In this document: one piece after another, positions 36,079 through 38,289 of the stretch | Layout: every line of letters starts with the position of its first letter | How positions within the stretch are numbered: position 1 is the first letter of the stretch | Source: Candidatus Saccharimonadales bacterium | GTDB taxonomy: Bacteria; Patescibacteriota; Saccharimonadia; Saccharimonadales; UBA10212 | Length of the DNA: 64,000 nucleotides | Assembly: GCA_040900055.1 (NCBI GenBank) | Contig: JBBDZU010000002.1 | Coordinates: forward strand, 127,725-191,724 | Reading direction: 5' to 3' | Program-made: the position numbers and the translations under genes | Notes under the pieces: model-generated | The model's input: the letters and a program-made list of their open reading frames with translations, nothing else | Told to the model about the DNA's origin: nothing | Databases searched by the model: none

Positions 36079-36088
36079 AATGTAGGCG

Positions 36089-36124
36089 GATCCCTCCCAA
36101 TTTCTGTAGAAATTGGGAGGGATC
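36089..36124. terminator. bidirectional 16-bp perfect hairpin between convergent genes
   Basis: GATCCCTCCCAATTTC-TGTA-GAAATTGGGAGGGATC, between the ftsK stop and the stop of the minus-strand gene. Confidence 0.6.
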
Positions 36125-36566
36125 ACGCCATGACGGCCTTCGGCATCAGCGACCAGTTGTGGCAAAGAACGTAGTTGGCAGGTAGAGCGATGCCCAGCCC
36201 CCAGACTAGGGCAATGCCAACCTGGGCCTCCAGGTACGAGAACCCGAAGGCTCCAACCATCGCCAAGTAGGCCAGATGTGGTACTGAGGTCATCACTAGC
36301 CTCTGACATGACCACCTAGCAGCACTGTTGACGAGAGCGACTCGTCTGTCGCGCCAAACGAACAGCAGGGCGCAGAAGACAAAGGGGCCCATAGTCGCTG
36401 AGGTGGTTGCTTTGGCTAGTCGTTCGTCCAAACCGAGTTGTGATACATACAGATGAATCACCCCAAGGCCTGCTACGAACGAAAGGGCAGAGACGGCCAG
36501 ATACTCGGTAATGCGACGTTTATGGCTACGGAGAAGGCTCCGCAGCTGCTCAACTTTGTGGCGCAT
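36123..36566 (-). CDS. GC-rich small integral membrane protein (possibly GtrA-like)
   Basis: 147 aa, about 4 TM segments. GC is well above the flanks. Family assignment is weak. Confidence 0.5.
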   Translation of the reverse strand: MRHKVEQLRSLLRSHKRRITEYLAVSALSFVAGLGVIHLYVSQLGLDERLAKATTSATMGPFVFCALLFVWRDRRVALVNSAARWSCQRLVMTSVPHLAYLAMVGAFGFSYLEAQVGIALVWGLGIALPANYVLCHNWSLMPKAVMA

Positions 36567-36651
36567 GCGGGACTCCTCCTTCCTGATTCTCGAAGACCTA
36601 CTCTCATGTTTTCCCGAGAGTCTAAGCTAACTATAGAACAAAGAATCAAAC

Positions 36652-36803
36652 TTGCATATTAAGCACAAGCGTCTTAGTATAACGTTGTATAGGCAAACAA
36701 ACATGAATAAAGAGAGCATATGCCTAACAGAGTAAGGATTACTCTAAGGTTTAATCGAGAGATAGCCGTAATGTCCGCGCTTAAAAGCGCGGATTTTTAT
36801 TTT
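36652..36803 (+). promoter_or_regulatory. promoter, ~120-nt structured leader and intrinsic terminator (riboswitch/attenuator-like or sRNA)
   Basis: TTGCAT-N17-TAGTAT (36652-36680). Hairpins TAGGCA...TGCCTA and AGAGTAA-GGA-TTACTCT. Terminator TCCGCGC-TTAAAA-GCGCGGA followed by TTTTTATTTT (36774-36803), ending at the SD of the next gene. Confidence 0.5.
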
Positions 36804-36814
36804 AGGAGCAAAAA

Positions 36815-37396
36815 GTGACTTCTGTCGAAGTAGGCAGAAACTCAGAGTCGATCTGGCCAGTACAAGGGGTGGATTTTTTTGAAGAACGTGGAGCTTTGTT
36901 AGTAAATGTTGGCGGACATGAGTTAATTGACAGCTTGATTGAAAAACCTGAGGTAGAAGAGCTTTTAGCCCATGGTTTTAACCGAAAAGAAGAGCTACAC
37001 ATAACAGTTCTGGGTTACGAGAACGGGAAACGCATAATCGATGCTACAAAGCATTATCCTGATAGCGAAAGGCAGGCACTGCTTTATCAGTTTGGCTCGA
37101 TGGCAAACAGCTTAAGGTGGTCATGGCAGCCAACTGGTGAGATTCATGTCTTACATAGGCGCGAGCGGGGTGGGCTTAAGGTTTTCTCAATGGTGGAATG
37201 TTCTGATGCAGAATTCTTCTATCAGTACGTGGAAATAACTCTCCCAGGAACGTATCTCAGGCGCCAACCTTTACACGTCACATTGTTAAAAAAAGCCTTT
37301 GAAAAAAATAGAACTAATGCCAGGGTGGGGGGTTTAGCTATAGGCAGGCCGTTGATTTCTTTAAGTCATTTACTACATGCGCCGACAGAAGGGTAA
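36815..37396 (+). CDS. 2H phosphoesterase superfamily protein (LigT/CPDase-like)
   Basis: 193 aa with two HxT motifs (LHITVLG, LHVTLLK) about 100 aa apart. GTG start after an AGGAGC SD. Confidence 0.55.
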   Translation: MTSVEVGRNSESIWPVQGVDFFEERGALLVNVGGHELIDSLIEKPEVEELLAHGFNRKEELHITVLGYENGKRIIDATKHYPDSERQALLYQFGSMANSLRWSWQPTGEIHVLHRRERGGLKVFSMVECSDAEFFYQYVEITLPGTYLRRQPLHVTLLKKAFEKNRTNARVGGLAIGRPLISLSHLLHAPTEG

Positions 37397-37440
37397 TAGT
37401 AAACAATTTAATTTATAAGAAACAAAAAGTAAAAACAAAA

Positions 37441-38184
37441 ATGTCAGTCGAAGCATTAGCACCAATAAGAAATTCCCAACTGGAAGAGTACTTTAGATTT
37501 GATAACGAAAATGATGCCGCGTTAAGTGGCCTCAAATCATTCGTTAGGAGTATTAACAGACGGCCAAACTTAACTAACGAGTATTCTATTGCCTTACCCC
37601 CACCACCTACTGGGTGTATGGAGAGTTGTCCATTTAAAAAGGGTAAGCATCGGTGTGAACTTACTGAACATCACTTGCATAGCACAGTCCCCGATTACGA
37701 AGCTGCTGGCGACTTAGCCATTGATTTTAGAGAACTCTCAGTTTTAACTGTTTGGCTGCCAGAATGCGTACACCATCGACATCATATGACGTTCGATATA
37801 CATGTACATATTCCAAGCGAAAAAGTTATGAAATGGTGTATACACGAACAGAAAATAATTCGAAATGTTGTTGACATCTCAAGGAGGCTTAGGAATACGG
37901 AGAAAGGCTTGGCGGAAGCTGCTGAAGCTGGGAAAGAGAGTTTTGGGCTTGATCAAGCTAAGGAAAGATTTATCGAAGAGCTAGACGACGCCCTTGTCGG
38001 AATTCAGAGCATTGAAGTCATACCCGAAGAGCTGGTAACAGGAGCATTGTTAGTTGCAGCCCCTGAACATGCCCAAGCTAGGATAGCCCGCGGGTCAGGG
38101 GTAGCCTTAACACGAACAATGACTATAAAAGAAGTGCCACTTGCCTTGTCGAATTTAGAAGCTGCAATGGCAGAAGCGGCCTAA
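37441..38184 (+). CDS. hypothetical protein with HNH-like Cys/His cluster
   Basis: 247 aa. CMESC...EHHLHSTVP...LPECVHHRHH resembles the HNH pattern CxxC...HH...CxxH. Helical C-terminal half. Confidence 0.4.
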   Translation: MSVEALAPIRNSQLEEYFRFDNENDAALSGLKSFVRSINRRPNLTNEYSIALPPPPTGCMESCPFKKGKHRCELTEHHLHSTVPDYEAAGDLAIDFRELSVLTVWLPECVHHRHHMTFDIHVHIPSEKVMKWCIHEQKIIRNVVDISRRLRNTEKGLAEAAEAGKESFGLDQAKERFIEELDDALVGIQSIEVIPEELVTGALLVAAPEHAQARIARGSGVALTRTMTIKEVPLALSNLEAAMAEAA

Positions 38185-38187
38185 ATC

Positions 38188-38216
38188 TTGACTAACAGGG
38201 GTGGCTAAGCTACACT
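38188..38216 (+). promoter_or_regulatory. putative rpsF operon promoter
   Basis: TTGACT, 17-nt spacer, TACACT. The ~67-nt leader contains hairpin TGGG-CTTAA-CCCA. Confidence 0.5.
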
Positions 38217-38289
38217 ATAGCGGTTAATAGAACTTCGGCCTGAGGCACTTATTTAGGTACTTGGGCTTAACCCAGAGGAAGAGGATGTT

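Follow-up and report, generated by a model that had tools for sequence, protein, structure and literature searches.

In the pyrBI operon of Escherichia coli, the pyrL hairpin is suppressed by a ribosome that is coupled to RNA polymerase, as described in the passage of PMC5021804 that cites Roland et al. (1988). In the pil1 leader of Streptococcus gallolyticus, a leader peptide that reaches the terminator destabilizes it (PMC3894217). We have analysed a 64-kb window (the whole stretch of DNA studied here, from a metagenome-assembled genome of Candidatus Saccharimonadales) and, within a divergent intergenic spacer of it, a leader that consists of a promoter, two overlapping open reading frames (ORF1 and ORF2) and an intrinsic terminator placed directly before the Shine–Dalgarno (SD) sequence of the next gene. 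From the comparison of 27 such leaders we suggest, with a probability of roughly 0.58, that the element acts as a conserved promoter-proximal, translated and ribosome-coupled attenuator of the pyrL kind, and that it serves a variable gene slot. It is an undescribed conserved element of soil Saccharibacteria, absent from Rfam, and our literature searches found no description of it. To our knowledge, gene regulation in Saccharibacteria and the other small-genome bacteria of the Candidate Phyla Radiation is almost entirely unexplored; the leader may offer a compact natural system for transcription–translation coupling outside the model organisms.

The likeness to pyrBI lies in the layout. Both place a promoter-proximal intrinsic terminator inside a leader ORF that is translated (predicted from sequence comparison in our case). 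The same passage of PMC5021804 describes a following ribosome, and no RNA antiterminator, as what prevents the hairpin, and none was found in our leader. What marks the pyrL type is present: a terminator between the promoter and the gene body, a leader ORF with a start codon and an SD, and an ORF that runs across the hairpin. A T-rich stretch ∼ 20–28 nt before the hairpin is also a possible parallel to the UTP-sensitive pause region. The leader differs from pyrBI in having no sequence homology to it, in belonging to another phylum and in carrying two overlapping starts 17 nt apart; its ORF ends on the main start or fuses to the main ORF, and the controlled genes are not pyrimidine genes. In pil1, too, a ribosome that reaches the premature stem-loop decides read-through, with short and long products corresponding to OFF and ON. 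The length of the pil1 product is, however, altered by slippage in a GCAGA repeat (phase variation) (PMC3894217), whereas the short ORF1 and the long ORF2 are hard-wired in every copy of our leader, which has no repeats. With trpL, ermC/ermK and bmrB the leader shares a short, SD-preceded upstream ORF (uORF) 5′ of a terminator, but these systems need alternative pairings and specific stalling codons or peptides, and neither was found here. Beside all of these, the leader stands out in that two starts overlap, the spacing is rigid, some copies are fused to the gene that they appear to regulate and its place before a hypervariable slot is fixed.

At the gathering threshold, Rfam 15 gave no match in the window nor in 18 homologous loci, and the matches obtained at a relaxed threshold align at the terminator region only. 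The best cmscan rows were Arrc14 (RF02860) and STnc130 (RF02084), with 21 and 17 bits against gathering scores of 99 and 55; in both the generic terminator alone is aligned, and the leader is a member of neither family. The sequence-only reading, an earlier annotation made from the letters of the window, had recognized no known riboswitch class, and the cmscan result, in which no family covers the leader, agrees with it.

The leader family and its two overlapping frames

The 27 distinct leaders come from Saccharimonadales genomes and metagenomes. Five were obtained by protein homology, from contigs that code for homologues of p247 (the second gene downstream of the leader in the window) and carry the leader directly 5′ of the homologue. 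Another 20 were obtained with a DNA pattern built from shared letters, AAACAAANATG-N64-74-CCGCGC-N4-12-GCGCGGNTTTT, which pulled 24 further loci from the Joint Genome Institute metagenomes. A profile of the alignment, run on 80 FtsK-anchored loci, added two leaders outside the pattern (L002 and L004). Direct comparison of the intergenic sequence of the window with these 80 relatives by blastn and nhmmer gave no match. There is one leader per locus, with no second copy in the 64-kb window or in any locus, and none in the viral contigs searched, which leaves a phage origin unsupported. The features of the leader in the window are as follows.

36652–36657, plus strand: −35 hexamer TTGCAT
36675–36680, plus strand: −10 hexamer TAGTAT, after a 17-nt spacer
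36690–36701, plus strand: 5′ untranslated region with an SD-like TAGG (SD1) and the A-rich box AAACAAA
36690–36695 and 36721–36726, plus strand: hairpin TAGGCA/TGCCTA, which pairs SD1 with the second start
36703–36735, plus strand: ORF1, 10 codons (MNKESICLTE) and a TAA stop; its start codon, ATG1, is at 36703
36720–36818, plus strand: ORF2, 32 codons (MPNRVRITLRFNREIAVMSALKSADFYFRSKK), from a second ATG in a frame other than that of ORF1
36729–36745, plus strand: hairpin AGAGTAA-GGA-TTACTCT, whose 5′ arm holds the ORF1 stop
36773–36803, plus strand: intrinsic terminator within ORF2, stem GTCCGCGCT/AGCGCGGAT, loop TAAA, T-tract TTTTTATTTT
36804–36817, plus strand: SD AGGAG (36804–36808) and GTG start (36815) of p193, the first downstream gene

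The promoter hexamers, the hairpins, the terminator and the SD with its GTG had all been named in the sequence-only reading and are confirmed in the sequence. The layout of promoter, leader, intrinsic terminator and ribosome-binding site is real and is conserved in relatives. Conservation beside the same downstream gene, on which the earlier claim had been made to depend, was also found, since the leader is kept in relatives that include the p193-homologue loci L099, L101, L111 and L114. The terminator cannot belong to the upstream gene, because that neighbour (a gtrA-like gene) is divergent and lies on the minus strand.

The strongest regularity concerns ORF2. Its start lies 17 nt 3′ of ATG1 (14 or 16 nt where ORF1 is shorter) and is ATG or GTG in 27/27 leaders, with an invariant TG. 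From this start to the terminator, all 27 leaders are free of stop codons in the ORF2 frame (25 by a script count, L002 and L004 by eye), compared with 34 and 29 stops in the other two frames of the 25 scripted leaders. Shuffled sequences give a mean probability of 0.39 per sequence that this frame is open, and the joint probability is well below 0.001 even if only ∼ 10 independent lineages are assumed. All length differences 3′ of the second start are multiples of 3, the terminator loop included. The frame also ends where the gene begins. ORF2 is continuous with the main ORF in L002, L004, L092, L098 and L106, where no SD or start follows the terminator. At the split loci the ORF2 stop falls −16 to +14 nt from the main-gene start in 19/19 cases, four of them with an ATGA/GTGA overlap, whereas the first stop of the third frame falls anywhere from −17 to +68 nt; in the window, the TGA of ORF2 overlaps the GTG of p193 (GTGA). 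An SD-like core ∼ 8 nt upstream of the second start reaches at least 4 nt in 13/27 leaders and at least 3 nt in 27/27 (background 13%); the AGGA/AAGG-like type is present in half of the leaders. These data identify ORF2, as far as sequence comparison can, as a translated frame that is kept open by selection.

Two other readings of ORF2 were tried and rejected. A conserved micropeptide was suggested by the motif SAP..GADF, which is the hairpin and the T-run read as codons; these codons are invariant at synonymous ORF2 sites as well, which points to a constraint at the level of the nucleic acid. A programmed frameshift from ORF2 into the main ORF does not fit either, since the main ORFs lie in either of the other two phases (12 and 7 loci) and mostly have their own SD.

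ORF1 is probably translated too. It is 10–11 codons long in 26/27 leaders (seven codons in L094), and it is preceded by an AGAGG-like SD1 with a core of at least 4 nt, 7–11 nt 5′ of ATG1, in 23/27 leaders against a background of 13%. The ORF1 stop has an invariant TA in the alignment. It is always TAR, made of positions 2 and 3 of a variable ORF2 codon (CTA, GTA, ATA or TTA) and the purine that follows. If the ORF2 amino acid were what is selected, the third position would be free to drift; it never does so, and the stop seems to be kept for its own sake. Similarly, no leader has A after the TG of the second start, a base that would make TGA in ORF1. The ORF1 peptides show no sequence conservation, no common motif and no tandem regulatory codons; codon 7 is conserved as TGY/TGG, but these are the same letters as the second start codon. 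The ORF1 stop lies 10–13 nt past the second start, within a local hairpin, and ∼ 40 nt 5′ of the terminator hairpin.

The promoter is part of the conserved unit. Its −35 hexamer is kept as TTG(C/T)nn in 25/26 homologues, and the −10 hexamer has the family consensus TATTAT/TATAGT/TATGAT, given also as TAT(T/A)(A/G)T and, more loosely, as TAT..T. A spacer of 17–18 nt and a −10 element that ends 19–23 nt 5′ of ATG1 are found in 25/26 homologues with upstream sequence. The hexamers of the window taken alone are weak (7/12 consensus positions) and were missed by a promoter scan. Transcription would start near 36687–36689, ∼ 15 nt 5′ of ATG1. The A-rich box is present as AAACAAA or AAATAAA in all seven leaders that were found without the search pattern.

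Two further observations concern the promoter region. A 22-nt direct repeat, 77% identical and possibly due to chance, has one copy 5′ of the promoter (36599–36620, TACTCTCATGTTTTCCCGAGAG) and the other within the leader (36740–36761, TACTCTAAGGTTTAATCGAGAG). On the minus strand, a promoter-like site at 36828–36799 (TCGACA-N18-TAAAAT, 10/12 matches) lies over the T-tract and the p193 start and is directed towards the gtrA-like gene; if real, it would yield an antisense transcript over the whole leader, and its −10 element is the complement of the T-tract.

Terminator, proposed mechanism and rival explanations

The terminator stem (36773–36794) has nine pairs, six of them G-C, and is followed by TTTTATTTTA. 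The motif CCGCGC-N4-12-GCGCGGNTTTT occurs once in the 64 kb, with 0 expected, and the site is the top-ranked terminator-like site of its 20-kb segment; the other terminator-like sites in the window are at shuffle level. In the family the core CCGCGC...GCGCGG is invariant in 27/27 leaders, including the seven found without the pattern, and the hairpin has a predicted energy of −12 to −18 kcal/mol (mean −15.1) with a T-tract after it. The core begins at +72 from ATG1 in 23/27 leaders and at +68, +69 or +75 in the rest, always in the same phase to the second start. The terminator begins 55 nt past that start, and the gap between the two halves of the hairpin core is only 6 or 9 nt.

Little else in the RNA is conserved as structure. 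The plus strand of the window folds at −31.5 kcal/mol (z = −3.5; 1/200 shuffles as good), and the minus strand folds as well (z = −3.0), although the T-tract is on the plus strand only. Across the family the pre-terminator regions are mildly structured (mean z = −0.86 against shuffles). A hairpin 2–10 nt past the second start, which encloses the ORF1 stop, is predicted in 26/27 leaders (mean z = −1.0), but its register differs from leader to leader and there is no consensus helix. Pairings of SD1 akin to TAGGCA/TGCCTA exist in other leaders at different places. The two clean hairpins that had been singled out in the window are not conserved in sequence or register; the leaders have in common only that the RNA tends to fold into a hairpin just past the second start. 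RNAalifold, applied to 25 leaders, returned the terminator as the only consensus helix, with a covariation term of 0. A search for an antiterminator found none, the 5′ arm of the terminator pairing with upstream sequence at −2.8 kcal/mol compared with −3.3 kcal/mol in shuffles. Between the second start and the terminator the entropy is ∼ 1.5 bits per column, which is near sequence saturation.

A T-rich patch lies at +44 to +52 from ATG1 (36747–36755), 20–28 nt before the stem, in most leaders, with T in up to 16/22 sequences per column. It may mark a site of polymerase pausing or reflect no more than Phe and Leu codons of ORF2.

Since no RNA antiterminator was found and the leader ORF spans the hairpin, the ribosome is the likely antiterminator. 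We infer that the hairpin terminates transcription in vivo and that the ribosome suppresses this termination. A ribosome that translates ORF2 close behind RNA polymerase would block the hairpin, transcription would go on and translation would be passed to the main gene. Without translation of ORF2, for example when the ribosomes are on ORF1 or lag behind, the hairpin would form and a transcript of ∼ 113 nt would be released. The default state is probably OFF, because a terminator 55 nt into an ORF sits where the first ribosome usually lags the polymerase; terminators in the first 100 bp of coding regions terminate efficiently (PMC4824070). The fraction of read-through would then depend on how closely the ribosome on ORF2 keeps up with the polymerase. 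ORF1 may stand to ORF2 in competition or in reinitiation. In the former case it would divert ribosomes, its end being too far from the hairpin to mask it. In the latter it would open the hairpin that follows the second start and supply ribosomes for reinitiation at that start, 10–13 nt upstream of the ORF1 stop. More speculatively, the post-start hairpin and the T-rich patch might pause the polymerase until a ribosome comes. Read-through transcripts would run on into rpsF-ssb-rpsR, because many of the ORFs behind the leader (its cargo) end inside the rpsF promoter. For annotation, the locus is a warning against calling a leader non-coding because a terminator immediately precedes the SD; this one appears to be translated and sometimes constitutes the true 5′ end of the gene.

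Several points weigh against this attenuator. The search pattern itself fixed the A-box, ATG1, the hairpin core and the T-run (AAACAAANATG and the other shared letters) in 20/27 leaders, so the invariance of these elements is partly a matter of ascertainment and only the seven independently found leaders bear on it. All leaders come from one order and are related, and probabilities multiplied over sequences overstate significance. ORF2 shows no 3-nt periodicity of conservation, from which we conclude that translatability is selected and not the peptide. L002 has ATC where the others have ATG1, and ORF1 is hence not indispensable. In the window, the SD1 match is only AGG (3 nt) and the SD of the second start (SD2) is poorly spaced. 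Translation or RNA stability, too, could be the target of a hairpin that lies less than 100 nt into an ORF. Finally, at L087 (2900–3006) the promoter (TTGCCA-N17-TATTAT) and the AAAACAAAAATA 5′ end are kept, whereas ATG1, the second start and the terminator are all gone and the p247 homologue starts ∼ 40 nt past the −10 hexamer. With both ORFs and the terminator missing, this locus indicates that the device is dispensable and can be lost.

These points lead to the rival explanations. That the hairpin is not a regulated terminator at all, being instead a constitutive leaky terminator or insulator, or an element of RNA stability, translation or protein binding, is unlikely in our view but has some observations in its favour: an invariant stem could reflect recognition by a conserved protein, the gene at L087 evidently manages without any of the device, and read-through would enter the rpsF promoter region, with no terminator between. 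Yet the canonical intrinsic terminator is just such a perfect G-C stem with a T-run behind it, the fixed 55-nt distance, the dual starts and the ORF1 stop are hard to fit to a passive element, and the change of the core gap by 3 nt (6 or 9) speaks against a DNA operator for a dimeric protein. A leader-peptide attenuator of the stalling type (the trp/his or erm/bmrB kind), in which ORF1 is the sensor and the stalled ribosome remodels the RNA, would account for an SD-preceded uORF of 10–11 codons ∼ 40 nt 5′ of a terminator, for the hairpin over the uORF stop and for the TGY/TGG at codon 7. We nevertheless consider it improbable. The terminator 5′ arm has no alternative pairing beyond that of shuffles, the ORF1 peptides lack a common motif or tandem regulatory codons, the conserved TGN codon is the second start, which also occurs as GTG, and the openness of ORF2 through the terminator is left unexplained.

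The sequence-only reading had favoured a transcription-attenuating riboswitch or leader, and a ligand- or factor-sensing leader of this kind, with an aptamer within the ∼ 85 nt that precede the terminator and a metabolite-driven switch between terminator and antiterminator, now seems very improbable. The order of promoter, structured RNA, terminator and ribosome-binding site is indeed present and the window folds well (z = −3.5), but the family mean before the terminator is only z = −0.86, Rfam offers terminator look-alikes and nothing else at either threshold, and the sole consensus helix in 25 leaders is the terminator, which shows no covariation and has no antiterminator. The region that should hold the aptamer is near saturation (∼ 1.5 bits per column) from the second start onwards yet is an open frame, and what is conserved in the letters belongs to start codons, a stop codon and SD-like elements. 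The genes behind the leader are functionally heterogeneous, so no single ligand is implied. The proposed link to a cyclic-nucleotide ligand through the 2H phosphoesterase likewise proved incidental, the leader preceding at least five protein families and p247 most often. The other suggestion made then, an independent small RNA of ∼ 120 nt, is also a poor candidate for the primary role, whether the terminated transcript of ∼ 113 nt acts in trans or, as a small mRNA, carries one or two micropeptides, with the downstream gene incidental. The conserved promoter and the strong terminator would suit it, and attenuator RNAs and leader peptides act in trans elsewhere, as the terminated attenuator RNA rnTrpL and the peptide peTrpL can do (PMC7298713). 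However, the leader always abuts a co-oriented protein gene, the ORF2 frame reaches that gene or enters it, being its 5′ end in at least five loci, the sequences of both small peptides vary, the loci and the window contain no further copy, and two SD-preceded ORFs that appear to be under selection are not what a non-coding RNA would carry. Lastly, the order of promoter, short RNA, terminator and small protein gene is one that we take to recall ToxIN, a type III toxin–antitoxin system in which a repeat-array antitoxin RNA and a terminator precede the toxin gene. This candidate was rejected and we accord it next to no probability: Tandem Repeats Finder returned 0 rows in the leader, PADLOC had no match for p193, p247 or the gtrA-like protein, and the leader RNA reads as translated.

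The variable slot between ftsK and rpsF

On every contig that carries a flanking marker gene, the leader is found in the ftsK–rpsF interval, oriented towards rpsF. In the 80 FtsK-anchored loci (GTDB species representatives) the order ftsK ... rpsF-ssb is kept, with a gap between ftsK and rpsF that ranges from ∼ 100 bp to 5.7 kb. The window has three genes in this gap.

36123–36566, minus strand: gtrA-like membrane protein gene, divergent to the leader (GtrA_DPMS_TM, E = 6.5e-5, below the Pfam cut-off)
36815–37396, plus strand: p193, first gene, 2H-phosphoesterase-like, 193 codons
37441–38184, plus strand: p247, second gene, of a Cys/His-rich family

A tblastn search of the 80 loci gave no homologue of any of the three, and 36079–38289 is therefore a lineage-specific filling of a variable slot. 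A divergent gene similar to the gtrA-like neighbour is also present in L083 and L113. p193 is missing at the p247-homologue loci L082, L083, L085/86 and L088/89, all of which carry the leader. The genes directly behind the leader fall into five BLAST clusters, and hence at least five protein families: the p247 family, a large 'HHHFHP'-type cluster, a 'FPR..NGL' cluster, the pair L097 and L102, and the p193 family (L099, L101, L111 and L114). Neither eight cargo representatives nor p193 and p247 had a significant Pfam match. At L088, a DDE transposase gene (DDE_Tnp_1, 663–1487) occupies the usual ftsK/gtrA-like place directly 5′ of the leader.

The other end of the slot is also conserved. Many cargo ORFs (L110, L109, L096 and L098) end inside the conserved rpsF promoter (−35 TTTACA, 17 nt, −10 TACAAT or TACCAT), so that promoter DNA, translated in frame, supplies their last ∼ 13 residues (..LQTEV..V.LAA). 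We had considered the C-terminal '..LAA' as an ssrA-like degron and set this aside, because these codons are the rpsF promoter in frame. In the window, p247 stops 3 nt before the −35 hexamer TTGACT of rpsF (38188–38216 region), and there is no terminator between cargo and rpsF.

These observations allow a broader interpretation, which we offer as tentative and on balance doubtful: the leader and the rpsF promoter would be the two conserved ends of a swappable slot into which recombination inserts unrelated cargo, and the dual-start leader would be its hard-wired toggle. Cargo would inherit its transcriptional control from the flanks, and sometimes also its first ∼ 30 codons (ORF2) and its last ∼ 13 (LQTEV..LAA). 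The short frame would abort at the terminator and the long frame would carry the polymerase through, and cargo expression, with possibly extra transcription of rpsF-ssb-rpsR, would be set by ribosome availability or by stochastic choice of start. If this holds, neither an attenuator family nor a regulated cassette site for variable genes would have been described before in the Candidate Phyla Radiation. The leader in any case marks a fast-changing gene slot whose families may bear on the epibiotic lifestyle or on conflict systems.

The downstream genes p193 and p247

A word-indexed protein search with p193 returned only p193 itself, whereas a full HMMER search of a library of 1.8 billion proteins found 55 remote relatives. 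Five of these (P0015–P0019) are proteins of ∼ 400–420 aa in which the p193-like domain is N-terminal. In an alignment of 29 sequences H62, T64 and H154 are invariant and T156 is nearly so, which gives two H-x-T motifs. The same 29 sequences have weak Pfam matches to 2_5_RNA_ligase2 (four, best E = 0.0021), LigT (two), Acb1 (one) and 2H-SAK (one). The best PDB profile match of p193 is a weak one (E = 0.58), aligned on the HxT, to the hypothetical protein PH0099 (1vdx), which we take to be a 2H-fold protein. A single-sequence AlphaFold2 model had a predicted local distance difference test (pLDDT) score of 33 and was unusable. Taken together, p193 is plausibly a 2H phosphoesterase; in the earlier assignment to this class the H-x-T motifs hold up and the profile support is weak.

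A search of NCBIfam with the downstream proteins returned nothing. Comparison of a model of p247 (pLDDT 73) with the PDB gave no fold match at E ≤ 0.001, and the HNH-like character that we had suspected by eye in p247 and its relatives is unsupported. p247 belongs to the family that is the most frequent direct partner of the leaders found by protein homology, with the leader directly 5′ of the homologue in L082, L083, L085, L088, L107 and L109; the members at L081 and L084 lie outside the ftsK–rpsF slot and have no leader. The family (P0003–P0010) has invariant residues C59, C63, C72, T75, H77-H78-L79-H80-S81, C109, H111 and H115, and the C-terminal half of the p247 model is long, helical and confidently predicted.

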